A stretch of 64,000 nucleotides of DNA from a virus (IMGVR_UViG_3300042975_000097); one strand, 5' to 3'. Shown: positions 3,720 through 33,891, counted from the stretch's first letter. The notes: a model not told the origin generated them from the sequence alone. Numbers and translations are program-made.

Positions 3720-3884
3720 GCGGGCATTATACCGGTGCGCGCACGAGTGGGATCGCGTACTGATTCTCTTCGCCTATCGACGTCGGTTATGCAGGAGAAT
3801 CGTTCACTATTGAGACCACCCCAAAACCGCGTCATCGCCCTCTACGTGGCTTACAGCTTGCGGCCGCCGCCGATGCCAGCGCGG

Positions 3885-4244
3885 TCAGACTCCCGAGTAG
3901 GAATCATGCTCATCATCCATGAGCGAGCGTTGGCGCTCGTACTCCTTGTCGGCGGCGACGGCATCGGCGCCATCGTAGAACGTGATGCGACCCCACTCGC
4001 CGGGGACAGGCGGTGCGGCGAAATCGGGGTTGCCGTCCATGTCGTCGATGCGGACCACACGGTAGGATTCGCCGGCATCGCCGCCGTTCGTCTCCGGGGC
4101 CGGCACGGTGACGTGGAGAAGGGCGAGCGTCTCCACCACCGGTTCATCATCGCTGAAGTCCACTGCATGTTGTTTCAACAGTTCCATCGATTGCCGCCTT
4201 ACCGCGCAGTCCGCGCTTTCCGCATTCATTACATGATCAAGCAT
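3885..4244 (-). CDS. hypothetical acidic protein
   Basis: 119-aa ORF, protein-like composition, no recognisable motif. Confidence 0.35.
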   Translation of the reverse strand: MLDHVMNAESADCAVRRQSMELLKQHAVDFSDDEPVVETLALLHVTVPAPETNGGDAGESYRVVRIDDMDGNPDFAAPPVPGEWGRITFYDGADAVAADKEYERQRSLMDDEHDSYSGV

Positions 4245-4461
4245 AGCGCGTCGCGTGGAATGACACGCCGTGCCGCGCTGGCCCCGTTATTGCTCATCAA
4301 GGTTCCGCATGTCACAGGGATTCGCAGTCGGCGCCGGTGACCGATCCCGGACGCCGTGATACCATGGAAGTCATGAGATTAGACGTATTGAAACTGCGAG
4401 AGTCGATAACGGCCGGAGACCTGCGCTACATCACGGTCATGCGTGTCGAACGGCCGCGAGC

Positions 4462-5286
4462 ATGACGGCGAGAACCGATTCCGTCGATGCCACGGGGTGG
4501 GAATACGAGACCGTGCCGACTGATGATGGAATCATCCACATCGTCAGCGGCGGGCTCGCGCGCGACCAGGGTGACGTCACATTAATCGCCCGCAGGCTAG
4601 AGGCGGCAGGCAACGGCGACTGGTTAATCTCTCCGGATGGAACCATCCTCGCGCACAGGCTGGGAGCGGCTGGACTCTCCGGCGCCAGATGGAGGTGCTC
4701 GATCATAAGGCCGCGGGGCGGCGGTTTGACGTTCCGTTACGTCTGCGGTTCCGGCCCCGGAATTCTGCCGCCATGCTCTATCGTTGCGAATGGTTGCGCC
4801 GGTACGGGGGAGCCGGAGAAAGGCTTCTACCGCACTCTCCCCATCATCAGGCATGGCATGAGGATAGGCGAGATCATCGTCGATGACAACGGCGACGGGT
4901 TCACGGTAGCCGGCGCCGCGATGACGTTCGGAGAACGGCTCGACCGCGCGGTCAGGCATTGGAGCCACATCGTCACGCGCCGCCCGTGGACGTTCGCGGA
5001 TCGCATCATCATCAAGCGGAGCGTGGCCGACCCGATTCCAGTAGGCCACACTCCGGTGGTCACGGCGTCGACGGCGCTCGTTCTCGTTCGTGCGGACCTG
5101 TACGCGCTGCGATTCAACGAGCGCCGATACATGGACATCGACGGGAACGCCCGCATCGACGTCGTGAACGAGATCGCGCGGACGTTCCCGGATGCGACCG
5201 CCGCGATGGTGAACGGCGCGATCGCGGATCTTGATCCGGCTGCTGCGAGCGCGATGCTTGCGCGGATTCAGGAGTTGGAACGATAA
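4462..5286 (+). CDS. hypothetical protein
   Basis: 274-aa ORF. The middle section is R/G-rich, so an internal frameshift is possible. Confidence 0.35.
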   Translation: MTARTDSVDATGWEYETVPTDDGIIHIVSGGLARDQGDVTLIARRLEAAGNGDWLISPDGTILAHRLGAAGLSGARWRCSIIRPRGGGLTFRYVCGSGPGILPPCSIVANGCAGTGEPEKGFYRTLPIIRHGMRIGEIIVDDNGDGFTVAGAAMTFGERLDRAVRHWSHIVTRRPWTFADRIIIKRSVADPIPVGHTPVVTASTALVLVRADLYALRFNERRYMDIDGNARIDVVNEIARTFPDATAAMVNGAIADLDPAAASAMLARIQELER

Positions 5287-5337
5287 CCTCGGCTGCGACG
5301 CTGGTGCTATCCTCGGACTTGTGGTACGATTATCGGT

Positions 5338-6105
5338 ATGGGACTTGATCAGAGTTATCTTGGCGAAGAGTACAGCGCGAACTTCGTACTACAGTCCGTG
5401 GTGCGTCACGTGACGGGCAACGACAAGGCCGGCTACCCCTGCTCGGTGCCGGTCACCGTCGGGCAGGCGCGTCGCGCGGACGCCATCATCCGCTCCATCG
5501 CCGCCGGCACGCGGGCGGGCGACGATGACGCCGAATCGCTCGCCGAGCATATCAGACATGGGTTTTCGACCGGCGACTATCATCACTACGATGCGGAGAA
5601 CGCGCTCGCCTTGACATGGCATGTCGTTGATGACGCCGTGCGGTCCGCGTTCGACGCCGCGTGGTCCACGGCCGCAGACCACGCCATCGCCGCGGCATTC
5701 CCCGAATCCGATGGGCTGACTCTAGACGGGGTGTTCTACGCCACGGCCCACACGCGCATGCTTACGCTGGACGAGCGCACGCTGGTCGATGACGCTCGCG
5801 CGCACGGGCTCTGCAGGCTGGCGTTCGCCAGCGTGTTCACCGCGGAACTCGCTTGCAACGGGATCACGGCGACGGACTCGGAGGTGGAGTCATACTACTG
5901 GCTGGCACGATTGCGGCTCGCCGGCTACGATTACCCGCAGGAGGGCGAGTGGCCGTTCGCGGACGATGCCGACCCGCGCTGCCCGCTGGCGGCGAAGGCG
6001 CGCGCACGGGTTCGCGGCATCATCACCGCGCATCATGATGACGGGTGGGACATCCTTCGACTGCGCGATCATGATCATCATGTCCTACAGTACTCGGAGT
6101 ACTGA
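5338..6105 (+). CDS. hypothetical protein
   Basis: 255-aa ORF with protein-like composition. Confidence 0.45.
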   Translation: MGLDQSYLGEEYSANFVLQSVVRHVTGNDKAGYPCSVPVTVGQARRADAIIRSIAAGTRAGDDDAESLAEHIRHGFSTGDYHHYDAENALALTWHVVDDAVRSAFDAAWSTAADHAIAAAFPESDGLTLDGVFYATAHTRMLTLDERTLVDDARAHGLCRLAFASVFTAELACNGITATDSEVESYYWLARLRLAGYDYPQEGEWPFADDADPRCPLAAKARARVRGIITAHHDDGWDILRLRDHDHHVLQYSEY

Positions 6106-6211
6106 TGGCGACGGGCGCACATGGCAATGGTACCGCGCTCTCGATGGCGTATACGAAGAGCCGGTCCGATCGCTGACCGTCCGCTTACGAGGTTAGATTC
6201 TCCGTGGTTGA

Positions 6212-6535: not shown

Positions 6536-6676
6536 TCATGTGAAGTCGTAATCGTAATCGTCCCCGTCCGGGCGTGTCGCCGGCGGGGCCGTACTATGCT
6601 CATGGGTATCAAGACAACAAGTCAGGGAGCGGATGCCATGTCAATGATCGGTAAGTTGGATGCGACGATGTACGCC

Positions 6677-6830
6677 TTGACACTCCCGGGGTTGAAACCC
6701 CGGGATTCCTGCGAACTGGGTTTGCTTGGCTTCCGGTCTTTGTGAGGCCGGCATGCCAGCGGCTCCCCATCTTGAGCAGGCTATCCCCGATTGTCGGTCG
6801 GTTCCAGCTCCCCTTTTACTGTCAGGGGGT
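6677..6830 (-). ncRNA. predicted omega RNA (reRNA) of TnpB, overlapping the tnpB 3' end and the right end
   Basis: Placed from established TnpB biology (ωRNA derives from the 3' end of tnpB plus the right end). Contains the right-end hairpin. Exact 5' end not determinable here. Confidence 0.35.
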
Positions 6831-8006
6831 TTCCGCATGCAGGCGGAGCGCTTCGCCGAGGATGTTGCGTGCAGCGTTCACGTCACGGTCGTGGAGGGTA
6901 CCGCATCGTGGGCATGTCCACTCCCGGTCTTCCAGTTTCAGGCCGGTGTTCTTCCACCCGCATTCATGGCAGAGTTTGCTGGACGGGTAGAAACGGTCGA
7001 CCTGCTGGAAAACGCGACCGTACCATTCGGCCTTGTAGGCGAGCTTGTCCACGAATCCACTCCACGCGGCGCGACGGATATTGCGGTTCATGACTCGTTT
7101 GCGTGACTGCCCGCTCCTCTCATACCTGCCGTCCGCGTTCAGGCGTTTGCGTGCCTTGCGTGTCATGTTCGCCACCATGAGGGTTTCCATGCCGATGAAT
7201 TGGTTCTCTTCGATCAGCCGATGGGTCACCTGATGCTGGTAGTTGTCACGCCAGTCGCGGAGCTTCCTGTGGGCGGCTTGAAGCCGGGCTTTCTGCTTGT
7301 AATAGTTGTTGGATTGCCTGCCTGTTCCTCTCTTCCTGCGGGAGAGCTTGCGCTGCTCGCGGATAATGGCCCGTTCGAGTTGCCTCATACGCTGCGGGTA
7401 GTCGATCTTCTCGCCTGTGGATAGGATGAGGAAGTCTTTAACGCCGAGGTCGATGCCGACCTGTCCGCGTACTTGGGGTTTGGGTTGGATGTCCACGTCG
7501 AACAGGAACACGATATAGTATCTGCCGCCCTCGCGTTTGACCGTCCAACTGGATAGTTGGTCGAGCGGGTAGCGGGGTTTGCGGCGTTTGCGGATGCGGA
7601 TGGAGCCGAGTTTCTTGGACAGCGGGTACCGGCTGCCGTCCATGTGCCGGATGGGCATCGTGTTGCGGAACGATTGCACGTTGCCATGCCGGGTGGCGAA
7701 TCGTGGCCGGTTCTTCCCGTACTGTTTCTTGCGGAAGTATGCGGTTTGGGCTTTCCGGTAGTCCATGATCGCGTTGCTCAGCGAATTCGACGGGATGGGG
7801 CTGTCTTTCAACCATCCGTAACGGGTTTTCATGTCCGTCACGTTTGGGCATGTGGGACGTGGGTTCGTGTCCTTGTCGTAGGCGTTGAACGCCTCGACCT
7901 GCTGGTTGTAGACGAATCTCTTGTCCCCGAAGCATTGCTCCAATAGTGCGGCCTGTGTCTTGGACGGGGCGAACGGTATGCGTTGCGCGAACTTGCGTCT
8001 GGTCAT
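6822..8006 (-). CDS. tnpB: TnpB (OrfB) RNA-guided endonuclease, IS605 family
   Basis: 394 aa. RuvC-like motifs (GIDLGVKDF). C-terminal zinc finger CHECGWKN...CPRCGTLHDRDVNAARNI. Confidence 0.9.
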   Translation of the reverse strand: MTRRKFAQRIPFAPSKTQAALLEQCFGDKRFVYNQQVEAFNAYDKDTNPRPTCPNVTDMKTRYGWLKDSPIPSNSLSNAIMDYRKAQTAYFRKKQYGKNRPRFATRHGNVQSFRNTMPIRHMDGSRYPLSKKLGSIRIRKRRKPRYPLDQLSSWTVKREGGRYYIVFLFDVDIQPKPQVRGQVGIDLGVKDFLILSTGEKIDYPQRMRQLERAIIREQRKLSRRKRGTGRQSNNYYKQKARLQAAHRKLRDWRDNYQHQVTHRLIEENQFIGMETLMVANMTRKARKRLNADGRYERSGQSRKRVMNRNIRRAAWSGFVDKLAYKAEWYGRVFQQVDRFYPSSKLCHECGWKNTGLKLEDREWTCPRCGTLHDRDVNAARNILGEALRLHAETP

Positions 8007-8446
8007 TCCGCGTCACGCCCCTTGGCCCGCTGGTCGTCGATGCATTTGGCAACGGCCTGCTCGTTCACGCTGCCGATGCTTTCCGCGAAGTAGCTGGGCG
8101 GCCATAGGCTTCGCTCCCCGCGCCGTTTCCAGTATTCGCTTTTAAGTTCGGGACGCATGGCGCACAGACGGAGACTACTGGTGCCTTTCAACTGTTTGAC
8201 GATGCTGCTGACGCTGATCTTGAGTGGTGCGGATACGAACAGGTGGATGTGGTCGTCCAATCCGATTTCGACATGGGGGATGCGGTAACCGTGCTCCTTG
8301 GCTATCGCATGGAGGATGGTTTTCAGATCGTCGCCCACACTGTCGGCGAGGACCTTGCGACGGTATTTTGTACACCAGATGATGTGGTAGTTCAGGTTAT
8401 ACACTGAAGTTCTACCATGCGTGTACCGTTCGCCACTTGATTTCAT
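8003..8446 (-). CDS. tnpA: TnpA Y1 HUH transposase, IS200 family
   Basis: 147 aa. HUH motif DHIHLFVS. Overlaps the tnpB start by 4 nt. Confidence 0.85.
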   Translation of the reverse strand: MKSSGERYTHGRTSVYNLNYHIIWCTKYRRKVLADSVGDDLKTILHAIAKEHGYRIPHVEIGLDDHIHLFVSAPLKISVSSIVKQLKGTSSLRLCAMRPELKSEYWKRRGERSLWPPSYFAESIGSVNEQAVAKCIDDQRAKGRDAE

Positions 8447-8630
8447 AGGATTATTATACCATATGTAGTGGATGAGGGCGTTCTAACCCGGCATTAAAAT
8501 ACCGGGTTAGCGAACGCAAATTCCCATCAACCACGCGGAGGAGACCGGTAGGAACATCCATCGGGCGGCCGGGTGGCTGAGCAAGCATTCGGGGTCGATC
8601 AGCCATGGTCTCGACACGGCCCGCGAATCG

Positions 8631-8921: not shown

Positions 8922-9136
8922 GAACGCTCCCGGCGACGTTCCCACCCCACATCGCCATCGAGCGCGCCGAGGATCGCGAGCATCGCCACGGAACGGTGAA
9001 TACGGGCGGCATATCATGTTCCTGCCAACGGGCGTGGGCGGCGCCTGCAAGCGACGCTGAGCATTCGCGTGTGGTGTCCCAAGTGGTATCATGGAGGTCG
9101 TATCATTGAACAGGCACAAGTGAGGAGCCATGCGAC

Positions 9137-9820: not shown

Positions 9821-10939
9821 CCACGATGACCAACACAAGAGGACACGGCGGCACGGCCGCCGACCTTATCGACGTGCTCAACGAGCGTGTGCGCGCGCTC
9901 GGACGTGGAGCGCCAGCGCTCGCGGGCGGTGGTACCACTCTTATCGTCGACCCGGAACCGTGGTCGAACGCGCGGCTGGAGGACATGCTGCGCGTCGTGG
10001 ACGCTGACTTCACGCCGAGATTGTCGGAGCGTTCGGGCATGCGTCATGACCTGGCGGCGCCCGCGTTCGATGGCGATGGCGTCCGCGCCTACCTCGGCTC
10101 ACTGGAACGCGAGCGCGCGGTCGCGCTCATCGCCATGGCCGGTGACGTCGCGTTGGCGGTCGCCGTCATGATACGCGAGCCCGGTGAACTGTACGTGGCG
10201 CTGATGGCCACGATGCCGGCCGCCCGCGGTCTCGGTCTCATGACGTCCATGTACGAGGTCATCGAGGACGTGGCCGATCACATGGCGCTGCCAGTTCACC
10301 TGCGCACGTCCAGCGAGAACGGGGCGCAGGTCCACATTCTCACGAAGCGCGGTTACGAGCGCGCGTTCACGCAGGAGCATCATCGTGGACCAGGCGTTCA
10401 CACGGTTCACTGGCGGAGATCGCCGGTGGCGGTCGATGACGATACGAGGGGGGCGGGCATGATCGAGTGGTTGAGGGATCATGTCAAGGGGGTCGATGAC
10501 GATCGGCTGGCCGAACTGGTCGCATGGGTGGGCCGGCAACGTGATATCGACCCGACAGTTGGCGCAGCCGGCGACAGGTGGGCGGTGGTCATCGCCGAGC
10601 ATAACGGTCAGGTGGGCGGTGGTCATCGCCGAGCATAACGGTCAGGTGGACATCACTGTGGCCGATGGCGGCACGGCCGCGCGGTTTGCGTTGGCGACGG
10701 GCGCGGGCGCGATTGACGACATCGTGACGCTCGATGATGATGGCGCGGCGCGGCTGCGGCGTTTCGAGGAAGTCTGCGCGGAATCGGTGGACGCGCATGA
10801 TTACGATTGGTCGCCGGCGTTCGACGGCGGCGCCGAGCGGTTATCGGTGACGTTGACGGTATCGTTCACCTCGATGGGCGAACTGTTCAAGGCATCGGAA
10901 TCGCCGACCTGCTGGTCTCGGCTGCGGGCGAACCTGTAA
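9817..10939 (+). pseudogene. hypothetical protein gene (weak GNAT-like ARGLGL motif) disrupted by a 34-bp tandem duplication
   Basis: ORFs 9817-10638 and 10481-10939 are in different frames. Removing one 34-bp copy restores a single frame: ...RWAVVIAEHNGQVDITVADGG.... Confidence 0.55.
10575..10642 (+). repeat. perfect 34-bp tandem duplication (CAGGTGGGCGGTGGTCATCGCCGAGCATAACGGT x2)
   Basis: Copies at 10575-10608 and 10609-10642, a partial third start CAGGTGGA at 10643. 34 is not a multiple of 3, so it frameshifts the gene. Confidence 0.9.
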
Positions 10940-10956
10940 TCGCCGGGTCGTCGGCG

Positions 10957-11095
10957 CGCGCTGTAAGCCACGTAGAACGACGAATCACGGTTTTGTGACC
11001 GTGGCATCGAAAAAGCCGTTTTTCGCACGGCGTTGAGAAAATACGCTCATACGATAAGTAAACGCTTGCCGTGTGAACGTAATCGACGTAGAGCG
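10957..11095 (+). repeat. copy A of a ~140-bp structured intergenic repeat family (GCTGTAAGCCACGTAGAAC...AATCGACGTAGAGCG)
   Basis: Near-identical to 33652-33790 and to the reverse complement of 19264-19412. Internal hairpins CACGGT-tttgtga-ACCGTG, CGAAAAA-gcc-GTTTTTCG, and ACGCTCATACG...CGTRTGARCGT with G-U compatible changes. Confidence 0.7.
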
Positions 11096-11209
11096 ATGCC
11101 ACGGCGTCGCGGAAAACAGTCCCCGCCCCGTTCGCGTCATCGCCGGCGTGTCGTTGGCGTTCATGGTGTTATCATGATGATAGTGAACAACCACGCAGGA
11201 GGTATGAAC

Positions 11210-11566
11210 ATGAGCATCGATGAACTTTTCGAGAACGTCATCGCCGGTCCCGAGCGTTATTACGCCGCCGTCGCCGATGGCAACACCGTCATCGTGTACC
11301 GCGAGATCATCGACGATACGTCGGTATCCGACTCCGAGTTCGAGATGCGGCGGGTGACCGCCGTCGACCCGGTTCACGGGTACTCCGGGATGAAACCACT
11401 CACCCCGTGGCTTCTCGTCGCCGCCGATGACATCGATTACGCGCCCGGGTCCAACATCGATGACATCACGTACCTCATGAGCAGCGTCGCAGCAGCCGAC
11501 GATGGCGACGATGGCGAGTACTTCGCGGATAAACTGCGAGAGGCACGCAAGATGCTCATGTTCTGA
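11210..11566 (+). CDS. hypothetical acidic protein
   Basis: RBS AGGAGG 8 nt before the ATG at 11210 (MSIDELFENV...); 118 aa. Confidence 0.45.
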   Translation: MSIDELFENVIAGPERYYAAVADGNTVIVYREIIDDTSVSDSEFEMRRVTAVDPVHGYSGMKPLTPWLLVAADDIDYAPGSNIDDITYLMSSVAAADDGDDGEYFADKLREARKMLMF

Positions 11567-16757: not shown

Positions 16758-16765
16758 TAACGTGC

Positions 16766-18467: not shown

Positions 18468-18474
18468 ACATCAT

Positions 18475-19044
18475 ATGAGCAGCATAATCACACATGAACC
18501 GGGCGGCACGGCCGCAGCCGGGGTCACGTCGACGATCGCGCGCCCGTCTGCGCCGAGCGGTTGGCGGCACGGCGCCGCGTGGACGTACGGCGTCATGCTC
18601 GCGGCGTCCGCCGTCGCGTTGTTCGTGTCGTTCATCCTCTCCGCGGAGACCCTACAACTGGCGCGACACCCGAGGCAATCGCTCAGCCGCGACATCAACG
18701 CAGTGCTCTCATGCTCGGCGGCCGCCGGCTCATGGCGGTCGGAGATCGTGAAACTGGGGACGCTGAGCGTGCCGAAGGCGTTCATAGGCATCGCCGCCGA
18801 GTCGGTCCTCGTCACGCTCGCCGTTCTCGGCATGATCCGCGTCAGCGTGCCGAGGTGGTTCACCGTGTGTACGTGGCTAGGCGGGCTGGCGGCGCTCGCG
18901 TACGGCCTACTGGCTGTTCAGCCAGTCCATGTTCGTCATTCAGGCGTTGTGTCCGTGGTGCCTTGTGCTTATGTTCTCCACGACCGTCCAGTTCATGGCG
19001 TTGTCGCACGCGACCGTCACCGTCCGCCGCGTTCCCGGCCATGA
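18475..19044 (+). CDS. hypothetical membrane protein
   Basis: MSSIITHEPGG... with several TM helices. A GTG at 18421 is in frame through the G tract, so the start is ambiguous. Confidence 0.45.
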   Translation: MSSIITHEPGGTAAAGVTSTIARPSAPSGWRHGAAWTYGVMLAASAVALFVSFILSAETLQLARHPRQSLSRDINAVLSCSAAAGSWRSEIVKLGTLSVPKAFIGIAAESVLVTLAVLGMIRVSVPRWFTVCTWLGGLAALAYGLLAVQPVHVRHSGVVSVVPCAYVLHDRPVHGVVARDRHRPPRSRP

Positions 19045-19263
19045 CCATCACCCCGTGGCGTCAAGACGGCTGGACGCGTATTATCGTCTTCGTTATGACC
19101 TCATGGTCGATGTGGTCGTAGTGCTCGCGCTCGCGGCCATCATACTGGTGCGCGATGGCGCCGCCATATTCCGATGAATCACGGGCACGCACGCACTGGC
19201 CAGCGCCGTTCGCGGTCGTGGCCGGTCGGTGGGGACGATAACGCCGCCGGCTACCGATCACGA

Positions 19264-19412
19264 TGACGCTCTACGTCGATTACGCTCACACGACAAGTAA
19301 ACGCTTGCCGTATGAGCGTATTTTTTGTGTGACGTCGTGAAAACGGCGTTTTCGATGTGACCATCGCAAAACAGTATTCTGTCGTTCTACGTGGCTTACA
19401 GCGCGCGTGGCT
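19264..19412 (-). repeat. copy C of the ~140-bp structured repeat (inverted), abutting the Dcm promoter
   Basis: Reverse complement matches copy A (...GCTGTAAGCCACGTAGAACGAC...AATACGCTCATACGG...CGTGTGAGCGTAATCGACGTAGAGCG). Confidence 0.7.
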
Positions 19413-19443
19413 CACTGCCCGCGCAAGTTGATATAATGCCCGT

Positions 19444-22353
19444 ATGACCATGAAATACATCAGCGTGTTCAGCGGGATCGAAGCGGCCACGGCCGCATGG
19501 TCGCCGCTGGGATGGAAACCGCTCGCGTTCAGCGAGATCGAACCGTTCCCGAAGGCGGTGCTCGCCGCCCATCACCCGGACGTCCCCGACCTTGGGGACA
19601 TCACGAAGGTCGACTGGTCCCCGTACGCGGGCAAGGCCGACGTGCTCGTCGGCGGCAGCCCATGCTTCCCGGCGGGCACGCTGGTGCTCGCCGCGGACCG
19701 GTTGACGCCCATCGAGGACATCCGGGTCGGCGACATGGTGCTCACGCATCGCAACCGTTGGCGTCGTGTGACGGCGGTCGGCTCCAAGACGTCGGCGACG
19801 ATCACGGTCGCCAGCGATGGCGTTACCGTGGAGTGCACACCTAACCACCCGTTCTACGCCGAGTCCGATGAAGGCGCCGACTCTCCCCGCGAGTGGGTGC
19901 GCGCGGACGCGATGGCCGGCCGTCGCTGGCTCACCGTGAACGCGCTGGCGGACCCGCTGCCCACGCCGGCCATGGTGAGCGCCGATGGCGAGGCTGGTCG
20001 AACGTTCGAGGTCGTGGGCCGGGCGCTAGCGAGCGGCGGCGACGCGGACGTGTATCATCGCGGCTGGGCCTGGCTGTTCATCCGCGCCGACGGGCCGACG
20101 GTGCCCGCGTGGGTGTTCGCCGCTCGCGTGGAGTGGCGCGCAGCGCTGAGCCGCGGGTATCATGCGGTCGCCAGCGGTTCGCCGACCCCTGCGGTCGTGG
20201 CGGCCATGCGCATCATCGACGCCGGTCTTCACGGGAACGACGCGGATGGTGATTGGGGAAGCGTGCGATCGTTGTCACGTTCGCGCGATCATGTCAAAGT
20301 ATATAACCTGGAGGTAGAGGATGACCATAGTTACACAGCGGACGCTATCGCAGTTCACAACTGCCAGTCGTTCAGCATCGCCGGAACAAGGGCAGGGCTC
20401 AACGGGGCCAGCGGGCTCATGTGGGAGTATGTCCGGGCGGTTCGAGAACTCCGTCCTCGTTGGTTCCTCTGGGAAAATGTCCCGGGGGCGCTCTCCAGCG
20501 CGCATGGGGAGGATTTCAGATGTCTCCTCACGAGCATGGATGAGCTCGGGTATGGTCTCTCATGGCGAGTACTGGACGCGCAGTTCTTCGGAGTGGCCCA
20601 GCGACGCCGTCGCGTGTTCCTTGTCGGACATCTTGGAGACGAACGCTCCGGCGAAGTATTATTTGAGCCCGAGAGCCTGCGATGGGATACTCCGTCGAGC
20701 AGAGAAAAGAGGGAAGGCCTTACCCGAGGAACTCAGAACGGCGTTGGAGAAGCAAGCGAACCCCGACTGAACCACCATACATGGGAGATCGCCGGGAACA
20801 TCATCGGCAGGCAGGAGAAGAACGGCGGCCATCAATTAGGCATCGTCGACCCCGATAAGACCGGCGCGTTCACGCTCACGACCGCCGACAGGCACGCGAT
20901 CGCTGATTGCCTGACTCCATGGGACAATCAGGGACGCCGACTGTACCGCCCGGATGGCGTATACCCGGCATTGGATGCGAGGACCGGCAACGCGGGCGGC
21001 GACGCGCGGGCGGTGATGACGAACTACGGAAGCGACATCGCCGGCACGCTCACGCGCCGTTACGATTCATCGCCGTGCGCGGACCGCGGGCAGAACATCG
21101 TGCTCGCAGCCGGTTTCAGCGCCGGCCAATCGCAATTTGCCGGCTCGATAGGGTACGAGCACGAGATGACGCCGACGCTCAGGGCGAGCGGATCGGGAAC
21201 GAATCAAGTGCCGACGGTACTGGTGAAGACCGATGACCCGAAGCGCGATCAGCCGACGATCGCGTTCGCCGCTAACCAGCGTGATGAGGTGCGCGACCTT
21301 CATGACCTTGCGGGAACACTCGCCGCCCAGCCGGGAATCAAGGGGCAGACGTACGTTATTCCCGAGAACGCCGCCGACCCGGTGCGCGATCGAGAGGTCG
21401 AGATGCGTAACCTTCATGACCCGGCCGCCGCGATCGCCGCCGAATCAGAGGAATCCACCATCATGTGCCGCGCGGGCGGTCAGGTGAACAGCGAGACCGA
21501 CCGTGACCTGTCGCCAACGCTCACCACGCATGACGCCAAGGACCCGCATATCATATACCCCGAGCGTACCGGCGCATGCTCCGTGCTCCGTATGCGCGCG
21601 GGGTGCGCGGGCGTCGGCAAGGATGCCCTGATTCAGAACGACGCCAGCGGCACGCTCGCGTTGAACAACGATCAGACGCTGTTCCCTCCGCACGGCGGCA
21701 TCCGTCGACTCACGCCGATGGAGTGCGAGCGGCTCCAAGGATTCCCTACGAGAGTGAAGCTTGACGTTTCGGCAATGACCGAGGCCGACATCGCCGCGAA
21801 TCTGCTCGCCGGCGGCGTCATCGCCATCGACCTTGACGATGACGCCGTCCACGCGCATACGGCCGATGGCGATCAGGTGGTCACGACCCCGTTCGTGGAC
21901 GCTATCATGGACGGCGCGCATCACCGCATCCGCACGGACAGGCTCGCTTACCAGTTCGCTTTCGGCGCCATCCCCGATGGCATGGTCATCGTCCATGACG
22001 ATCATGACGAGTCGAACAATCACCCCGACAACTTGTCGCTGGCGCCCGTGGACGATGCGCCCGCGACCGATGACGGGTCGGCCGTCGATGCGCCGACGGT
22101 GACGATGCCGGTCTCGTTCACGCATGATTACATGTCATCATGGTCGACGTACCGTGATCTGGCCGCGTGGTACGGCATCGATGGCGAGCGTATCGACTCC
22201 ATCGTCAGCGAGCGCGGCTGGACGGACATCCCGTGGCATGGCAAGGATCACGCGGCCGACGCGCCGAGGTACCGCGCGCTGGGCAACTCCATGTGCGTTC
22301 AGGTGATGCGCTGGCTTGGCGAGCGCATCGCCCGCGCCGATGCCATGGACTGA
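19444..22353 (+). CDS. Dcm-type DNA cytosine-C5 methyltransferase precursor with an intein in motif IV and an HNH-like insertion between motifs IX and X
   Basis: Extein motifs: I VFSGIEAA; IV GGSP|intein|CQSFS; VI WENVPG; VIII QRRRVFLVG; IX RRLTPMECERLQGFP; X YRALGNSMCV. HNH-like VHDDHDESNNHPDNL at roughly 21960-22040. Leaderless-type promoter TTGATATAATGCCCGT-ATG. Confidence 0.8.
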   Translation: MTMKYISVFSGIEAATAAWSPLGWKPLAFSEIEPFPKAVLAAHHPDVPDLGDITKVDWSPYAGKADVLVGGSPCFPAGTLVLAADRLTPIEDIRVGDMVLTHRNRWRRVTAVGSKTSATITVASDGVTVECTPNHPFYAESDEGADSPREWVRADAMAGRRWLTVNALADPLPTPAMVSADGEAGRTFEVVGRALASGGDADVYHRGWAWLFIRADGPTVPAWVFAARVEWRAALSRGYHAVASGSPTPAVVAAMRIIDAGLHGNDADGDWGSVRSLSRSRDHVKVYNLEVEDDHSYTADAIAVHNCQSFSIAGTRAGLNGASGLMWEYVRAVRELRPRWFLWENVPGALSSAHGEDFRCLLTSMDELGYGLSWRVLDAQFFGVAQRRRRVFLVGHLGDERSGEVLFEPESLRWDTPSSREKREGLTRGTQNGVGEASEPRLNHHTWEIAGNIIGRQEKNGGHQLGIVDPDKTGAFTLTTADRHAIADCLTPWDNQGRRLYRPDGVYPALDARTGNAGGDARAVMTNYGSDIAGTLTRRYDSSPCADRGQNIVLAAGFSAGQSQFAGSIGYEHEMTPTLRASGSGTNQVPTVLVKTDDPKRDQPTIAFAANQRDEVRDLHDLAGTLAAQPGIKGQTYVIPENAADPVRDREVEMRNLHDPAAAIAAESEESTIMCRAGGQVNSETDRDLSPTLTTHDAKDPHIIYPERTGACSVLRMRAGCAGVGKDALIQNDASGTLALNNDQTLFPPHGGIRRLTPMECERLQGFPTRVKLDVSAMTEADIAANLLAGGVIAIDLDDDAVHAHTADGDQVVTTPFVDAIMDGAHHRIRTDRLAYQFAFGAIPDGMVIVHDDHDESNNHPDNLSLAPVDDAPATDDGSAVDAPTVTMPVSFTHDYMSSWSTYRDLAAWYGIDGERIDSIVSERGWTDIPWHGKDHAADAPRYRALGNSMCVQVMRWLGERIARADAMD
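19663..20361 (+). other. intein (233 aa, Hint domain, no obvious LAGLIDADG motif)
   Basis: Starts CFPAGTLVLAADRL (block A) directly after GGSP. Ends VYNLEVEDDHSYTADAIAVHN followed by C of CQSFS (blocks F/G, HN + Cys). Confidence 0.7.
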
Positions 22354-22375
22354 CCAGTAGGTGCACGCCCGGCAT

Positions 22376-22440
22376 GACAACGACGAAGCGCCGTGAGCAC
22401 GACTCGAAATCGTGTTCACGGCGCTTCGTCGTTGTCATCG
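22376..22440. terminator. long near-perfect palindrome (25-bp stem, 11-nt loop) between convergent genes
   Basis: GACAACGACGAAGCGCCGTGAGCAC-gactcgaaatc-GTGTTCACGGCGCTTCGTCGTTGTC, one mismatch. Generates the mirrored artefact ORFs 22205-22438 and 22167-22544. Confidence 0.5.
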
Positions 22441-22492
22441 CTGGCCTTCGCCGGCATCCTTGCTCATGCGCGCGTCGGCAGTGTCCGCAGCG

Positions 22493-22831: not shown

Positions 22832-23195
22832 GCCTACGATAGCATCGATCGGTTCGCGACACGCCGGCGAGCGCGGATTGGTCACACGCTCGGCATCATG
22901 GCCAGCAGGGCGCTGACCCCATTGGAATCGTCGGCTCCGAAGCGGCGTTCCAGCCATCCATCCATGGTCGTGCTGAAATTCAACGCGGCATCGAGCGCCC
23001 ACACCGCCGTCCTCGTCAACGGGTCGTTCGCGTCGATGCGGTCGCCGCACGCCATTGATTCGCATACGACCCGGATGCCGGCGGCGGCGTCAAGTGGTCG
23101 CCGGCACCGGGAACGCGATGGGCGGCCGACCCCGTTATGGAGTCCGACCGCCCATCATCTGATCTTACCGACCGGGCATCACCCGATCACGCCGT

Positions 23196-27430: not shown

Positions 27431-28414
27431 TTGACTTTTTACAAACCAGAGTATGGGTGGGTTCGCTGGAAGTGGCCGAGCCGATGGTCCGCGGCGCGGA
27501 TGTTCTCCGGATGGATCGCTGCGGCCGGCGTTACCGGCATCGTCATCCGCAGCGAGAACGATCCGTTCGCCGCACCGTTCGATGGCGTAGATCGTATGTG
27601 GCCGGCTACTTATGATCAGAAAAGTGCTTCGGATAGGAGAGCGAAGAGCATCAACGCCGAACTGTCGAACACCATGATCCGCGTGACCGCAAACAAGTAT
27701 GTCACTTCGATGGTGATAACCGGCCAGTATGTGTTCTCCGACCCCATATGTTATCATAGAGAGCAGCCACGCATCCGCATAGGCGATGACGAGTACCGGT
27801 ATGCTGCGGTTGCGCTGTCGAGGCACATGGTCATCGATCAATGCGATGACATGCCCGGAAACGATGTGCTTACGACCCGTGACCGTGAAACGTTGATGCG
27901 TGGCCTGATCGGCATGATCAGTATGTCTCCGCGGAAACGAAAGCAGTTCGCGAGCATCATCACGCATGTGTCGTTGACGACCGACCCGGCGTCGTTCCTC
28001 ACGGGCAGCGAGGACGGGACGGTAACGCCTTCGAACAATCGCGATCGCCGGCGGGCGGCGACATTCATCGACCATATGAGGAAGACCCGGGATGGACTCC
28101 GGCCGATCATGCCGGGCGCCATCATGGAACTGGCCGACCGGTATGTCGGCATGGCCGATGAGTCGGCCGAACTGATTCCGACCGCCATCGACCGGTCGGC
28201 GATCGACACCATCGAGGACGCGATGCTATCACTCGATGCGCTCGCGTTCACGGCAAGGAGTACGAGACTCGCCGGCGAGGGCCGCCGGCTTGATGCCGCG
28301 CTCGCCGCAGCAATGCGCGACATCGAACTCATGGACGGCGAGCACGCGCGGCGCGGGCGCGAGGTCATCGACTCGGCGCTGGCGACAGAAAGGGAACGTG
28401 AGCATGTTCGGTAG
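27431..28414 (+). CDS. tandem paralog family, copy 1 (divergent N-terminus, TTG start after RBS GGGAGG)
   Basis: Shares ...GITSITIRSPFDPYER.../...GVTGIVIRSENDPF..., AELSN(I/T)M(F/I)R, and C-terminal RDIELM..EH..RGR.VIDSALAT.REREHVR with copies 2-4. Confidence 0.55.
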   Translation: MTFYKPEYGWVRWKWPSRWSAARMFSGWIAAAGVTGIVIRSENDPFAAPFDGVDRMWPATYDQKSASDRRAKSINAELSNTMIRVTANKYVTSMVITGQYVFSDPICYHREQPRIRIGDDEYRYAAVALSRHMVIDQCDDMPGNDVLTTRDRETLMRGLIGMISMSPRKRKQFASIITHVSLTTDPASFLTGSEDGTVTPSNNRDRRRAATFIDHMRKTRDGLRPIMPGAIMELADRYVGMADESAELIPTAIDRSAIDTIEDAMLSLDALAFTARSTRLAGEGRRLDAALAAAMRDIELMDGEHARRGREVIDSALATEREREHVR

Positions 28415-29441
28415 GAAGAAGAAAGTCGTTAAGAGCGAGCCTGACGTCGTGCGTCACAATAAGGCTTACCCGGTGATGACAGTGAACATCGATGAGATGA
28501 ATGCCGATGACGAGTCGTTCCGCAACTGGATTCACTCGGCTGGAATCACAAGCATCACCATTCGCAGCCCGTTCGACCCGTATGAGCGTAAGGACATGGG
28601 GCTGCCGGGGCAAGGCGATAACATCAGTCATGAAAGTTACGATATGATGTCGGCTGAGATTAACGCGGAGTTGTCGAACATCATGTTCCGGATCATTGGC
28701 TCCCGGTACCGCACCTCGATCCTAGTCAATAACGGCTACTGGGTCAGGGCTAACTACGTAAGTCCAAGTTTTCGTATCGATCATGACGAGTACATACTCC
28801 GGAGCATGGTACACGCAAAACCCGATAACAACAATGGCTTCGACTACTGGCTATCCCAGTGCGATGACGCGCCCGGCAATGATGCGCTCGACGTATTCGA
28901 GAGAACGGAACTCGGCAAGGCGATGACATGGTTCATGGAGGCCAGCCCTGAGGAGCGGAAAACATACGCGGACATCATCACATGGGTGGGACCGGACGTC
29001 AAACCGGTGGCGTTCCTCACCGGTAGTGGTAAGAACGTCGCGCCGGCAAGGCTGATCGAGCGCGCTGAGGATTACATGAGACATATCCATGCGAGCCGCG
29101 CCGGCATCCCCGAAGCAACGCCGGATGACATTGCGGACATCGCCGACGGTTACGTGGCGAACGCGGAGTCAGCGATGACGATGATGCGTGAACCGAAACC
29201 AGCCGGCAACGCGGACTGGAACGCCATCGTCGACGTCATCGACAAGGCCATGTCCGACATGGATGCGCTCGTGTTCGCCACGAGCACCATGACGATGGAG
29301 AACGAGAACAGACGTCTCAGGCTGGCGCTTGTCGACACGATCCGCGACATAGAACTCATGAGCAGCGAGCATGAGCAGCGTGGCCGCGCGGTCATCGACT
29401 CGGCGCTGGCGACAGGAGGGGAGCGCGAGCATGTTCGGTAG
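28404..29441 (+). CDS. tandem paralog family, copy 2 (intact; MFGRKKKVVKSEPDVVRH...)
   Basis: ATG lies inside ATGTTCGGTAG, which also holds the TAG stop of copy 1. 345 aa. Confidence 0.6.
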   Translation: MFGRKKKVVKSEPDVVRHNKAYPVMTVNIDEMNADDESFRNWIHSAGITSITIRSPFDPYERKDMGLPGQGDNISHESYDMMSAEINAELSNIMFRIIGSRYRTSILVNNGYWVRANYVSPSFRIDHDEYILRSMVHAKPDNNNGFDYWLSQCDDAPGNDALDVFERTELGKAMTWFMEASPEERKTYADIITWVGPDVKPVAFLTGSGKNVAPARLIERAEDYMRHIHASRAGIPEATPDDIADIADGYVANAESAMTMMREPKPAGNADWNAIVDVIDKAMSDMDALVFATSTMTMENENRRLRLALVDTIRDIELMSSEHEQRGRAVIDSALATGGEREHVR

Positions 29442-30465
29442 GAAGAAGAAAGCCGCGAAGAGCGAGTCGGACGTCGTGCGTCACGATACCGATTACCCGG
29501 TGATGGCAGTGACATCGATGAGATGAATGCCGATGACGAGTTGTTCCGCAACTGGATTCGCTCGGCGGGGATCACGAGCATCACCGTTCGCAGCCCGTTC
29601 GACCCGTATGAGCGCAGGGGACATGGGGCTGCTGGCGCGGACAGAGCGATAGACATCAGCCATGAAAGTTACAACATGATGTCGGCTAAGATTAACACGG
29701 AGTTGTCGAACATCATGTTCCGGATCATCGGCTCCCGGTACCGCACCTCGATACTGATCGATAACGGCTACTGGGGCAGCAGTATCTCCCGACCCCAGCT
29801 TTCGCATCAATCATGACGAATACGTATACCATAGCATGGCAAAAGTACGCCATGGTGACGGCGATTACCTGTACTGGCTATGCCAGTGCGATGACGCGCC
29901 CGGCAATGATGCGCTCGACGTATTCGAGAGAACGGAACTCGGCAAGGCGATAACCTGGTTCATGGAGGCCAGCCCGGAGAAGCGGAAGACATACGCGGAC
30001 ATCATCACATGGGTGGGCCCGGACGTCGACCCGGTGGCGTTCCTCACCGGTGATGGTATGAACGCCGCGCCGGCAAGGCTGATCAACCGGGCGGACGTGC
30101 TTATCGAGCACATGGAGCACGCACGCGATTCGATGTCATCGACCATGCCCGATGACATCATGGGCATGGTCGATGCGTGTATGAACACGGCGCATACGGC
30201 GGCGTCAGCGCTTCGTACGCGATCATTGGCGGACGTCGACTGGAACGATCAGATGGACATCATCGACACGTCCGCGACCAACCTTGATGCGCTCGTGTTC
30301 GCCGCAAGCACCATGACAATGGCAAATGAGAGCAGACATCTTAGGATGGCGCTTGTCGACACGATCCGCGACATAGAACTCATGAACAGCGAGCATGAGC
30401 AGCGTGGCCGCGCGGTCATCGACTCGGCGCTGACGACAGGAAGGGAACGTGAGCATGTTCGGTAG
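29431..30465 (+). pseudogene. tandem paralog family, copy 3, inactivated by a -1 and a +1 indel
   Basis: N-terminus in frame 1 stops after ...VMAVTSMR*. Conserved middle (ORF 29523-29816) is in frame 0. C-terminus (29836-30465) is back in frame 1. Indels are at GTGAACATC->GTGACATC and TATTCCCG->TATCTCCCG relative to copies 2 and 4. Confidence 0.6.
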
Positions 30466-31456
30466 GAAGAAGAAAGTCGTGAAGAGCGAGCCTGACGTCG
30501 TGCGTCACGGTAAGGCTTACCCAGTGATAACAGTGGACATCGACAATACAGATGCCTACTCCGAGTTGTTCAAGAACTGGATTAACTCGTCGGGGATCAC
30601 GAGCATCACCGTCCGCAGCCCGTTCGACCCGTATGAACGCGGGGATATGGGGCTGCTGGCGCGACAGGGCGATGACATCAGCCATGAAAGTTACAACATG
30701 GCGTCGGCTAAGATTAACACGGAGTTGTCGAACATCATGTTCCGGATCATTGGCGCCCGATACCGCACCTCGATACTGGTCGATAACGGCTACTGGGGCA
30801 ACAGTATTCCCGACCCCAGCTTTCGCATCAATCATGACGAATACGTATACCATAATATGGCAAAAGTATGCCATGGTGACGGCGATTACCTGTACTGGCT
30901 ATGCCAGTGCGATGACGCGCCCGGCAATGATGCGCTCGACGTATTCGAGAGAACGGAACTCGGCAAGGCGATAACCTGGTTCATGGAGGCCAGCCCGGAG
31001 AAGCGGAAGACATACGCGGGCATCATCACATGGGTGGGCCCGGACGTCGACCCGGTGGCGTTCCTCACCGGTGATGGTACGAACGCCGCGCCGGCAAGGC
31101 TGATCGAGCGCGCGGATATACTCGTCGAGCACATGGAGAAAATCCGGGGAACGCTGACGACCGTCCCCGACGACATCATGGCAACGGTTGACAAGTACTT
31201 CGGAACCGCGAGATCGGCCCTGACCATCATCCACTCGCCGGCGACAACACCCTCCGCCAGCCGCTCATGGAACGATCTGCTTGACATCATCGAACATTCG
31301 ATGATGGCCGTCGACGCGCTGGCGATGACCGTGATGACATCGAATCTCGCACAGTCGAACAAGGCAACTGGACATGGCGTTCGCCAGCGCGATTCACGAT
31401 ATCGAACTCATGGACGGCGAGCACGCAGCCAAACCGAACCGCAGGCATGTTCCCTA
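30455..31456 (+). CDS. tandem paralog family, copy 4 (C-terminal frameshift/truncation)
   Basis: Conserved to ...NLAQSNKA. The family C-terminus (LDMAFASAIHDIELMDGEHA...) continues in the +1 frame and ends at TAG 31454-31456. Confidence 0.5.
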
Positions 31457-31831
31457 GAAGACGACCGTCTGAGTTCTCGTTAACGCCTGAGCCGATCACC
31501 CGGTGATCGACGGCGGCGATGTGATGCCGGGCAATGGCGCCGACATGCTATCATCAATCGACAACGCCCGAGTACGAACGCACGAACCGCGAGCACGGCT
31601 CGAAGCCATGACCGGACAGTATGAACCCATCGATGACCTCGCGGAGCTCCGCGCTCGGGTATGTCGAACGTTCACGCGCTTGATTCCATGTCAGCCCGTC
31701 ATCGGCGCAGATGCCAAGCCAATCGCTATCGGCCGTCGTCGTGTAAGCGAACGGCCGACCCTCGTACCCGTTGTCGTTTAAGAGCGGAAGATACCAGCCG
31801 ACCGAAAGCGGCCGACCGGTCGATCCTCGGC

Positions 31832-33244
31832 TCATGATCGGGGCGCTGGCATGAGCGAAGCCGCCATCTCAGCCAACTTCGTCAGCTCGTCGGCGCCCGC
31901 GGCTCCAGTCAGATCGGCGATGCCCACATTCAGCGTGTCGATGGCGTTGATGATCGCAGACGATTGTTCACTGTACTCGATCCCCCGGGAGAGTTCGCGC
32001 ACGGCCTCGATCTCGGCTCGCAGCAGCGCGTCCTCAAGCCCCTCCTCCGTCAACGTCGCCGCATCGGCGTCACGCCAATCCGAATCGATGCCCATGGTGA
32101 ATGAGTACGTGAGCGTACAGCCGCTCCACTCGGCGATACTGCCGCTCAGCATCGCCAGCGTGGGCCAGCGGTCGGGCTCGTCGACGTAACCGAGCCACTC
32201 GCCCTGCGCGGACGCTCCGAGGAACTGTACGAACATGTCATCGTGATACCGGTCGACGATCAGTCGAGCGATATCCACGCCAGCGAACGCGAGCGCGCCC
32301 ATTTCCGGCCGGTGATTATCCATGAACGCGTCGGCCACCGCACGCGCCGTCCGTGACTTGCCCACGAGCAGTTCACGGTCGGACTCGGCGAGTTTCGGCG
32401 GCCGGCGAGCGTGATCGTCACGGATGCCGCGCTCGATGCGATGGCGAAGGGCGGCGAACGCCTCATCCAGCGCGCGGGCGTCACACGCGGCGAAGCACGC
32501 GTTCCCGGACGGGTACGAGGCCACGTTCACCGAGGCGAGCGCCCGGTCGACGTCATACGTCGGCGTTCCCGGAACCGGAACCGGTGCCGATGGTCTCGCG
32601 TCGCGCGGCGTCGGCATGGCCCACGGGTACGGGGCGACGTACCTGGGCTTGACGCCGCCCGTAGCCTTTTCGTGCCGGAGGAACCGTGACAGGTCATCCG
32701 GGTGCCCGTTCGTCACCGCGCCGATGACGGCGACGTCGAACGCGAGCGACATGACTTCGAGTACCCGTTGCCGAATCTCGTCGACATTCATCGTCTCAGC
32801 GAGCGCGAGCGTAACCGCGCCGGCGCGCTCGATGTTCGGCAGGGCGGCGCGGTTATCGAGCTTGAACCCGGTCATCAACGATCCCACGCGTCTGGTTTCC
32901 TTGACCGGCCAAGCGCCATCGTCGCCGATGTCAAGCGGATCGATGCCGGTAAGCGCGTACGCGGCGCGCGAACGATCGTCGATCGATGCCAGTCGGCGGT
33001 CGATGGCGTCGCCGGTGTGGTGTGCCGTCGGCCGATCTGCTCCCCACACCGTGTCCCCGGCGATGGTCTCGATGTCGAAGCCCCTGCGCCAGGCCGCGTC
33101 AACGGCGTCGGCGCGACGGTCGATGTAGTCATGGCGCGCAGTGACGGCGGCGTCGACGAGCGCCCGGCGCATGTCGCGTATGGTCGTGCCGAGCCCACGT
33201 TGGCGTTCCAGCAGTTCCCTGATCCCGTTCCTGTTATCGGTCAT
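31832..33244 (-). CDS. hypothetical protein P2 (paralog of 24650-25897)
   Basis: 470-aa ORF. Shares the DRYHDDMFVQFLG region with P1. Confidence 0.5.
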   Translation of the reverse strand: MTDNRNGIRELLERQRGLGTTIRDMRRALVDAAVTARHDYIDRRADAVDAAWRRGFDIETIAGDTVWGADRPTAHHTGDAIDRRLASIDDRSRAAYALTGIDPLDIGDDGAWPVKETRRVGSLMTGFKLDNRAALPNIERAGAVTLALAETMNVDEIRQRVLEVMSLAFDVAVIGAVTNGHPDDLSRFLRHEKATGGVKPRYVAPYPWAMPTPRDARPSAPVPVPGTPTYDVDRALASVNVASYPSGNACFAACDARALDEAFAALRHRIERGIRDDHARRPPKLAESDRELLVGKSRTARAVADAFMDNHRPEMGALAFAGVDIARLIVDRYHDDMFVQFLGASAQGEWLGYVDEPDRWPTLAMLSGSIAEWSGCTLTYSFTMGIDSDWRDADAATLTEEGLEDALLRAEIEAVRELSRGIEYSEQSSAIINAIDTLNVGIADLTGAAGADELTKLAEMAASLMPAPRS

Positions 33245-33651
33245 GTGATGGCTCCTTGTTCTCTCGATGTATCGGCTCTTACCCGTTCCCCATCATACTA
33301 CCGCCGACATGCCGATGACGCGAAACAGCGGCGATCACGACGATGCCGGCTGGCGTGTGATGCCGAGCGCTGCGGTCAGGTAACCGTTCACTTGTTCGCG
33401 GGCCTCGCTCGCGGCCATGCCGTCCGCGAGCGGCGGCAGCGCCGGGTCGGGCCATGAGCCGTCCTCGGCGAGGTCGCCTAGTTGGATGCCGGCGAGCACG
33501 TAATCGGCTCGGCGCCGAGAATCAGCGGCATTCATGGCCGCGGCGATGGCGTGGGTGAAGCGTCCCGGTGAGACGGATGGCCCGTGTAACGGCGGTCCAG
33601 CGACCGGCTGGTGGCAGGAACGGGCGACGACGCTGGCGACCGATGCCGTGC

Positions 33652-33790
33652 GCTGAGAGCCACGTAGAACCCGGAAACACGGTTTTGTGACCGTGGTATC
33701 GAAAACGCCGTTTTTTCGACGGCGCATGAAAATTACGCTCACACGTCAAGCGTTTGCTTACCGTATGAGCGTAATCGACGTAGAGCGATG
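33652..33790 (+). repeat. copy B of the ~140-bp structured repeat
   Basis: GCTGAGAGCCACGTAGAAC...CACGGTTTTGTGACCGTGG...ATTACGCTCACACG...CGTATGAGCGTAATCGACGTAGAGCG. Confidence 0.7.
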
Positions 33791-33891
33791 TGGTCAACGA
33801 TCGTCGGCGAGGTTTTCACCGGTTCGCACCGTTCAACCGCGCGCAGGCGTCCCGGTCGACCTGATGGCGTTCGCCGGCGAACCGGCGACGG

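Follow-up and report, generated by a model that had tools for sequence, protein, structure and literature searches.

What is the hairpin-rich repeat that recurs between the genes of IMGVR_UViG_3300042975_000097, and what might it do there? The window analysed is a stretch of 64,000 nt from this entry; coordinates are counted on the window, and numbers beginning with L denote related metagenome contigs. A sequence-only reading of the window had described a hairpin-bearing repeat family, and the family of intergenic repeats of about 144 bp was confirmed as real. Three full copies (A, B and C) are present, with pairwise identities of 76-80% and BLAST E-values of 1e-29 to 1e-33, which is a similarity far beyond chance. 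The copy boundaries were refined by alignment, repeat finding and a covariance model. All copies were found where that reading had placed them and only their boundaries had to be adjusted, the start of copy B being GCTGAGAGCC and not GCTGTAAGCC. The conservation reaches about 5-10 nt upstream of GCTG and, past GAGCG, takes in ATG (3 nt) in four of the six loci. The 5' remnant is weak when taken alone (77.8% identity over 54 nt with a BLAST E-value of 0.002; covariance model 13 bits, E 0.77) and is kept in every related contig covering the site (L004/L005). The covariance model detected no further copy in the window, and its match at 22884-23001 is coding sequence and was judged spurious.

Outside the window, three further loci (D, E and F) and three allelic variants were obtained from related metagenome contigs. 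The comparison of copy E with copy B revealed 93-94% identity over 151 nt, with flanks dissimilar by both blastn and tblastx. The unit is therefore discrete and portable, being placed in differing contexts, and with loci D and F added the description of a dispersed hairpin-bearing unit is borne out. The density of the element is about 6.5 copies per 76 kb.

The element has the same order throughout. It opens with a conserved 5' block (CGCGCGCTGTAAGCCACGTAGAAC), from which hairpin 1 is separated by a hypervariable spacer of 8 nt. Next come the invariant ATCGAAAACGCCGTTTT, which is one half of hairpin 2, a second, variable spacer and an A-run; hairpin 3, a quasi-palindrome of 40 nt, and an invariant 3' block (GAGCGTAATCGACGTAGAGCG) complete the unit. 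The three hairpins noticed earlier are predicted in every copy. The stem of hairpin 1 has 5-8 bp and hairpin 3 is a quasi-palindrome of 16-17 bp, the two being unrelated in sequence. Ends and stems are invariant although the copies differ by about 20% overall. The strongly conserved ends (GCTGTAAGCCACGTAGAAC ... GAGCGTAATCGACGTAGAGCG) are able to pair together. The direct terminal ACGTAGA motifs are present as claimed, and they also pair with each other through their palindromic ACGT core, so that together with CGCT/AGCG they give an imperfect terminal inverted repeat (CGCT-G/C-T ... ACGT-A/C-GA). This pairing (CGCU.U/A.AGCG and ACGU.GA/UC.ACGU, separated by an indel of 5 nt) is imperfect as well as short; as its columns are invariant, it provides no covariation evidence for a terminal inverted repeat. 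A conserved small open reading frame (ORF) within the element, suggested by a Joint Genome Institute (JGI) call of 59 aa over copy A and by one of 43 aa in L008, was rejected as stops and indels vary among the copies.

The bottom strand and the placement of the element were then considered with respect to transcription. On the bottom strand of all eight sequences, T4-6 comes directly after hairpin 3 (-14 to -24.6 kcal/mol) and TTTTCGAT after hairpin 2 (-8 to -15 kcal/mol); the two hairpins with their T-runs look like tandem intrinsic terminators. No hairpin followed by a T-run was found on the top strand in any of the eight. The A-runs that encode the U-tracts are invariant and the adjacent columns vary. 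Both of the terminator-like sites predicted in the region of copy B are situated inside the copy on the - strand. All seven loci lie between co-directional genes; such gaps constitute 10 of the 25 window gaps of at least 150 nt, which gives 0.4^7 or about 0.002 for seven out of seven. The terminator strand is the transcribed strand in five of the six full copies (B, C, D, E and F) and the opposite strand in copy A and the remnant. Copies C and F are followed within 36-38 nt by a -10 box with a leaderless ATG, giving the layout of gene, element, promoter and next gene. Our tentative first choice, held at slightly less than an even chance, is that the element is mainly an intrinsic transcription terminator or an insulator, acting one way only, between transcription units; it would be copied as a block and would exchange patches by gene conversion.

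According to this model, RNA polymerase leaving the upstream gene in the bottom-sense orientation would meet hairpin 3 with U4-6 and then hairpin 2 with UUUUCGAU. In the opposite orientation, as in copy A, no U-tract would be met and read-through would be expected. The unit would reach new intergenic sites by being copied whole, and ectopic gene conversion would let its copies swap short patches. Hairpin 3 is strand-neutral and tolerant of inversion, which fits a terminator stem whose loop sequence is immaterial. Its central 16 nt in copy A are the reverse complement of the centre of the other copies with the stems unchanged, and against allele D2 this centre shows one difference as an inversion and nine when read directly. 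This small inversion, of the hairpin-associated type, would not be readily tolerated in a sequence-specific RNA. Small inversions at hairpins in non-coding DNA are well known from chloroplast intergenic hairpins; they are a mutational phenomenon and not a functional family, and they account for the hairpin 3 centre alone. A 'flip' of the whole of hairpin 3 in copies B, E and F was also considered and downgraded, as the T·G (A, C, D), T-A (D2) and C·A (B, E, F) states of its variable pair are connected by single transitions. Among these 'flips' only the inner 16-nt inversion of copy A is solid.

The exchange of patches was examined on allelic variants. Between the alleles D and D2, 13 of 146 positions are different, against about 3.6% in the nearby flanks. 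Five of these differences fall inside the 8-nt spacer, where the D version equals that of the neighbouring remnant and the D2 version equals copy A and the consensus. The L016 allele of copy B differs from B mainly in the same spacer (3-4 of 8 positions). Such patchy differences matching other copies suggest short-patch gene conversion between copies. The spacer itself occupies element columns 25-32 between the 5' end motif and hairpin 1 (10979-10986 in copy A and 33671-33678 in copy B). It is hypervariable even among orthologous alleles of near-identical genomes, far above the divergence of the flanks.

Several results weigh against a terminator. A generic terminator scan of the region gave 11 sites compared to 10.2 in shuffled sequence, and in view of this lack of enrichment the support comes from conservation across copies. 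All copies descend from one ancestral sequence, so that the hairpin-plus-T anatomy is effectively a single maintained observation. The orientation bias of five in six is not significant (one-sided p about 0.11). Copy A stands in the non-terminating orientation and still keeps the conserved ends. Among orthologous alleles the element is no better conserved than its flanks. A terminator also leaves the conserved 20-nt ends and the top-strand hairpin 1 unexplained, and these look like protein-recognition or mobilisation signals. If the element does terminate transcription, its copies would serve as built-in landmarks for the limits of transcription units in a genome (at least 346 kb) where about 90% of the genes are without recognisable function, and would be an example of portable one-way terminators in a high-G+C setting with leaderless mRNAs. 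The coordinates of the copies, their parts and their neighbours are summarized in Table 1.

Table 1. Copies of the repeat, their parts and the adjoining genes; positions are those of the window unless a contig is given
Feature	Position	Strand	Remarks
Copy A, full, 144 nt	10955-11098	+	covariance model 161 bits
Copy A, 5' end motif GCTGTAAGCCACGTAGAAC	10960-10978	+	columns invariant in 8 sequences except copy B
Copy A, hairpin 1 (UCACGGUU/GACCGUGG)	10985-11004	+	better paired on top strand
Copy A, hairpin 2	11014-11032	-	bottom strand: followed by TTTTTCGAT, terminator-like; predicted site 11031-11015 (-)
Copy A, hairpin 3, 40-nt quasi-palindrome	11042-11081	-	bottom strand: followed by TTTTCTC
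Copy A, 3' end motif AATCGACGTAGAGCG	11081-11095	+	
Copy A, neighbouring genes	10619-10939; 11174-11566	+	co-directional with element top strand; G+C at third codon positions (GC3) of flanking ORFs 0.78-0.79
Copy B, full	33647-33790	+	covariance model 164 bits
Copy B, hairpins 1; 2; 3	33677-33696; 33706-33724; 33734-33773		
Copy B, neighbouring genes	33892-34551 (upstream); 33335-33535 and 31832-33244 (downstream)	-	co-directional with element bottom strand
Copy C, full	19264-19407	-	covariance model 157 bits
Copy C, hairpins 1; 2; 3	19358-19377; 19330-19348; 19281-19320		
Copy C, terminator-like site	19301-19319	+	followed by ATTTTTTGTG
Copy C, neighbouring genes	18929-19177; Dcm 19444-22353	+	co-directional with element bottom (terminator) strand
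5' remnant	~3800-3862	-	end motif and hairpin-1-like part, closest to copy D; hairpins 2 and 3 missing
5' remnant, neighbouring genes	3885-4244; mod 1845-3719	-	
Copy D	L009:7170-7315		~1.8 kb past left end of window; allele D2 in L011/L012
Copy E	L008:304-447	-	on 1,260-bp ENA contig
Copy F	L035:17537-17680	-	~2 kb past right end of window
Copy B, allele	start of L016		partial at contig end

A selfish non-autonomous transposable element is the next explanation, which is unlikely and yet to be taken seriously. A hairpin-recognised mobile unit, as put forward in the sequence-only reading, is likewise possible. The element could resemble miniature inverted-repeat transposable elements (MITEs) or could be mobilised by an HUH/Y1 transposase in the manner of the IS200/IS605 'PATE' type (palindrome-associated transposable elements). 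The transposase would then recognise the ends and subterminal hairpins, and termination, if it occurs, would be a by-product or a means of limiting harm. The sharp boundaries of a discrete unit that is nearly identical in unrelated flanks (copies B and E) are in accordance with this, as are ends of about 20 nt that are highly conserved in otherwise diverged copies and that form an imperfect terminal inverted repeat. The hairpins are placed much as in IS200/IS605 ends, hairpin 1 being about 25 nt from the 5' end and hairpin 3 being 14 nt from the 3' end. The substitutions in hairpin 1 are all compatible with top-strand pairing (G·U in C, D and F), and genes for a Y1 transposase and several TnpB proteins are found on the replicon. 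However, sequence inspection revealed no target-site duplication at any of the six loci A-F, and the comparison of their flanks gave no shared or copy-specific direct repeat abutting the ends. As to an insertion 3' of a fixed tetra- or pentanucleotide, the left flanks are all GC-rich (CGCGY-like) and the true boundary is fuzzy there. No longer element with the same ends was found in about 90 kb of this lineage; the end motifs expected of an autonomous partner occur in short copies only, in the window and about 25 kb of flank.

The ends of the resident IS200/IS605 insertion sequence (IS; 6640-8530) are also unrelated to the element, which likewise speaks against this explanation. The left and right hairpins are unlike each other, and the 4 nt just 5' of hairpin 1, the guide position of IS200/IS605, are the most variable part of the element. 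The only Y1_Tnp gene belongs to the tnpA-tnpB IS, and a Pfam scan of 40 window ORFs detected no other transposase or recombinase domain. Relatives of the 470-aa protein flanking copy B, of which there are only four homologues, offered no empty site: L016 keeps B, and the sole relative without B misses a 1.7-kb block that is not element-bounded. The element shows no similarity to the resident IS200/IS605 or to the right-end (omega-RNA) regions of the TnpB genes, and a derivation from either was rejected. The remnant was likewise considered as an 'empty site' or solo footprint of recombination between two ACGTAGA motifs; this was rejected as the remnant runs into a hairpin-1-like segment matching copy D.

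Repeats of comparable form are known. The Correia repeats of Neisseria, the enterobacterial ERIC/IRU and the pneumococcal RUP/BOX are dispersed intergenic repeats of 100-150 bp with long stem-loops and complementary ends. Repeats of the Correia, ERIC and RUP type are often co-transcribed, sometimes act as terminators and are confined to single lineages. Correia and RUP have clear terminal inverted repeats of 20-26 bp and target duplications (TA). The element shares with these families the size, dispersal, intergenic site, folding, complementary ends and restriction to one lineage. It differs from Correia and RUP in that its inverted repeat has only about 13 nt with an indel and no target duplication is present, and from MITE-like repeats in having no sequence similarity to Rfam or to the public genome collections searched. 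Bacterial stem-loop families have been surveyed (PMC2267715). With PATEs and with the repetitive extragenic palindrome (REP) elements, including REPINs (REP doublets forming hairpins) and their RAYTs (REP-associated tyrosine transposases), it shares subterminal hairpins, the lack of target duplications and of long inverted repeats, and a Y1 transposase on the replicon. The tetranucleotide GTAG is present in both end motifs, as in REP heads. In contrast to PATEs, the left and right hairpins of the element differ, the resident IS ends are unrelated and the guide position is hypervariable. In contrast to REP/REPIN-RAYT systems, GTAG stands at least 13 nt from any palindrome and no RAYT-type gene is flanked by copies.

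It is rather doubtful, though conceivable, that the element is the trace of an as yet undescribed mechanism by which DNA is moved or shuffled in giant extrachromosomal elements of Actinobacteria. It could be a hairpin-guided single-strand transposon that leaves no duplication, with direct ACGTAGA-containing ends and the hypervariable 8-nt segment beside hairpin 1. Or it could be a crossover module that carries cassettes such as mod-res between genomes, similar to the promoter-early stem-loop (PeSL) cassettes discussed below. If the element is mobile or recombinogenic, it would help to explain the gain and loss of gene modules in giant elements.

A recombination or protein-binding module in which dispersed intergenic blocks serve as crossover points for inserting, deleting or inverting gene modules is improbable. 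It would be modelled on the PeSL cassettes of T4-type phages, in which a stem-loop with promoter and terminator stands between genes and mediates the shuffling of modules (Arbiol et al. 2010, PMC2839356; Comeau et al. 2014, PMC4122927). By analogy, the PeSL cassette is the closest functional counterpart of the element. Both are repeated intergenic modules of about 100 bp in a large ORFan-rich genome, with terminator-type stem-loops, co-directional neighbours and exchange between copies; the element has, by its sequence, two hairpin-plus-T-run sites per copy on one strand. Variation of gene content near one copy is a further point of likeness. The PeSL has a strong sigma-70 promoter beside the stem-loop and is loosely conserved, whereas the element has three hairpins, sharply conserved ends and both orientations. 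No promoter-like site was found inside any copy; for Dcm, mod and the gene following copy F, the -10 box falls beyond the limits of the conserved unit.

The arrangement of the copies offers some support for crossovers. The remnant and copy D are direct repeats flanking the mod-res restriction-modification module (L009: 1574-1668 and 7170-7315). Copies A and C do form the inverted pair described earlier, 8.2 kb apart, and the patchy allelic differences that match other copies are consistent with exchange. Gene content differs beside copy B in two relatives (L015 and L016), and PeSLs have been described as mediating such shuffling (PMC2839356). However, none of the observed indels (those of L015 and L016) is bordered by copies on both sides, and the other blocks of the related contigs are collinear. 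The A-C and mod-res blocks are present and collinear in every related contig covering them. A role of the A-C pair in inversion is not supported: the block of 11.1-19.3 kb was neither inverted nor absent in any of the four contigs spanning it (L001, L002, L004 and L006). No strain without the mod-res module was seen among the related contigs. Moreover, a promoter is absent from the interior of the conserved unit, and the analysis revealed no dedicated recombinase. The variable spot beside copy B covers about 33320-35059. Contig L015 (L015:2309-2358; a relative with 77% amino acid identity) is without 1.7 kb, including a 219-aa gene and copy B. Contig L016 (90%; L016:175-1926) carries an extra 1.75 kb at about 100 nt from B, with genes for a glycoside hydrolase of family 6 and a prepilin N-methylation-domain protein. 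The junction at this spot is marked by a duplicated 3' gene end (33335-33400).

The earlier reading had proposed a conserved RNA structure, and a covariation test was made for the three hairpins (30 pairs) in eight distinct sequences, a set of low power, on both strands and with shuffle controls. Over the three hairpins 91.3% of the cells are paired on the top strand and 85.8% on the bottom strand; the values are 87.5% and 65.6% for hairpin 1, 85.4% and 89.6% for hairpin 2, and 95.3% and 94.5% for hairpin 3. A two-sided change was observed in only 1 of the 30 pairs, and all covariation measures were at or below the shuffle controls on both strands (score against shuffle mean, 0.058 and 0.070 for the top strand and 0.035 and 0.050 for the bottom strand). 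The strand-specific G-U compatible substitutions reported for the longest hairpin were not supported either: some copies have G·U on the top strand and others have C·A, which reads as G·U from the bottom strand. Transitions can thus yield G·U on one strand or the other, and the reported pattern was half of a symmetric one. Most copies fold more stably than their shuffled versions (z -1.7 to -5.3), the consensus fold has 40 pairs, and hairpin 1 of copy C is still paired via top-strand changes of G-C to U·G and G·U. Nevertheless, a structured non-coding RNA gene or cis-regulatory RNA is highly improbable, with no Rfam match even at E up to 10, no covariation above shuffles on either strand, a strand-symmetric hairpin 3 whose inverted centre in copy A would alter the RNA loop and bulge sequence, no promoter in the conserved part, no terminator at its top-strand 3' end, mixed orientation relative to the neighbouring genes, and alleles that differ more within the element than in the flanks.

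The differences from the PeSL, MITE-like and IS200/IS605 types mean that the element is filed under none of these families. It is most likely a new example of a familiar kind, the terminator-bearing dispersed intergenic repeat of bacteria and phages. The suggested link of two copies to methyltransferase promoters turned out to be a positional coincidence. Copy C lies 36 nt from the start of Dcm and the remnant about 80 nt from that of mod; copy C faces Dcm with its 5' end and the remnant faces mod with its 3' side, and the other five loci (A, B, D, E and F) flank unrelated genes.

The distribution of the repeat was searched in several collections. The whole window gave no Rfam family match at gathering thresholds, and around copy A at E up to 10 there were chance-level matches only, all outside the element. 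Neither the plasmids searched with the element by BLAST nor the phages searched with the region gave a match to the element. In IMG/VR, no match was obtained by the both-ends pattern, the 3'-end 19-mer, the 5' motif with hairpin 1, the hairpin 3 pattern or the 5' motif, nor by a protein-based scan. The both-ends pattern had 0 matches in 185,579 species represented by one genome each; in metagenome contigs it gave one true copy (L008) and one chance match (L007). The 3'-end 19-mer matched 18 times in the genomes of these species, in unrelated taxa, and these matches are due to chance as none was recognised by the covariance model. A sister giant element (a 567-kb scaffold; contigs from rumen samples were among the places returned) had no copies and no analogous hairpin repeat in 21 kb. 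The four homologues of the 470-aa protein were the only ones among 5.8 billion proteins, and together with the negative searches this indicates that the family and its host lineage are both rare. The repeat family is a genuine, previously uncatalogued and lineage-restricted one, and it can serve as a lineage-specific marker for tracking the uncultivated replicon in metagenomes.

The host replicon is a more unusual object than the repeat. The window proteins are exactly matched in a JGI metagenome contig family, of which the longest member is Ga0527070_018 (346,143 bp), and the related contigs are 99.4-99.9% identical over shared parts. The replicon is a giant (at least 346 kb), uncultivated, ORFan-rich (about 90%) element of 62% G+C, and its host is probably a Bifidobacterium-like actinobacterium, as indicated by the relatives of its cation-efflux protein, the IS similarity and the leaderless -10/ATG arrangement. 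The cation-efflux protein has relatives of 52-59% on metagenome scaffolds of 350-570 kb (L036-L042), some from cow rumen, and its best cultured match is Bifidobacterium sp. ESL0704 (44%). The resident IS200/IS605 (tnpA and tnpB; - strand), identified by plasmid BLAST match and JGI gene calls, is 75% identical at the DNA level to one from Bifidobacterium longum megaplasmids and is the sole plasmid match. Assignment of the replicon to the Hodor megaplasmids (PMC12934698) was rejected, as those are associated with Bacillota. Ten of the 40 ORFs scanned against Pfam were also scanned against PHROGs. Nearly all of the 40 were without a match; the few exceptions include a Type III mod methylase, an intein-bearing C5 methylase, a GNAT-family acetyltransferase, a phage PHA02142-type RNA ligase, two TnpB genes besides that of the IS and the cation-efflux protein.

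The genes mod and Dcm have a common start region TATAATGCCCGYATGACC (at 3719-3745, -, and 19425-19446, +, respectively), in which a TATAAT box stands 6 nt before the ATG and suggests leaderless transcripts. The leaderless arrangement is typical of Actinobacteria. In the gene after copy F (L035:17719), TATCAT is present 7 nt before the ATG. The Dcm-type C5 cytosine methylase (19444-22353, +; 969 aa) is interrupted by an intein (Hint/Intein_splicing) and has an HNH_3 endonuclease domain. Directly after its stop a long hairpin was observed (22360-22452), with 43-nt arms that are 84% complementary and a 7-nt loop.

Besides the IS, two TnpB genes at 35977-37284 (-) and 58321-59781 (+) have a common 46-nt upstream block (37293-37338 and 58240-58285), and some strain variants carry an extra 542-aa TnpB-like gene (L004:17910-19538) at window position ~4581-5048. 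A second repeat family (40427-41600 and 55123-55204) consists of a unit of about 56 nt (CGCTATACCTGATAGCTCCCACCTTTAACACGATT...) in at least seven copies, in both orientations and with a spacing of about 160-180 nt; no tRNA was found at its sites. These repeats adjoin paralogous genes (39247-40380 and 53934-55076) that are 94% identical over 300 nt (39291-39590 against 53987-54286). At 28232-31483 a tandem triplication with a period of about 1,027 bp holds paralogous ORFan genes in blocks of 67-98% identity. A 600-aa protein encoded at 60734-62536 (+) consists of 25-aa DUF285 (BspA-like) repeats, which correspond to 75-bp tandem DNA repeats, and has a type IV pilin-like hydrophobic N-terminus.

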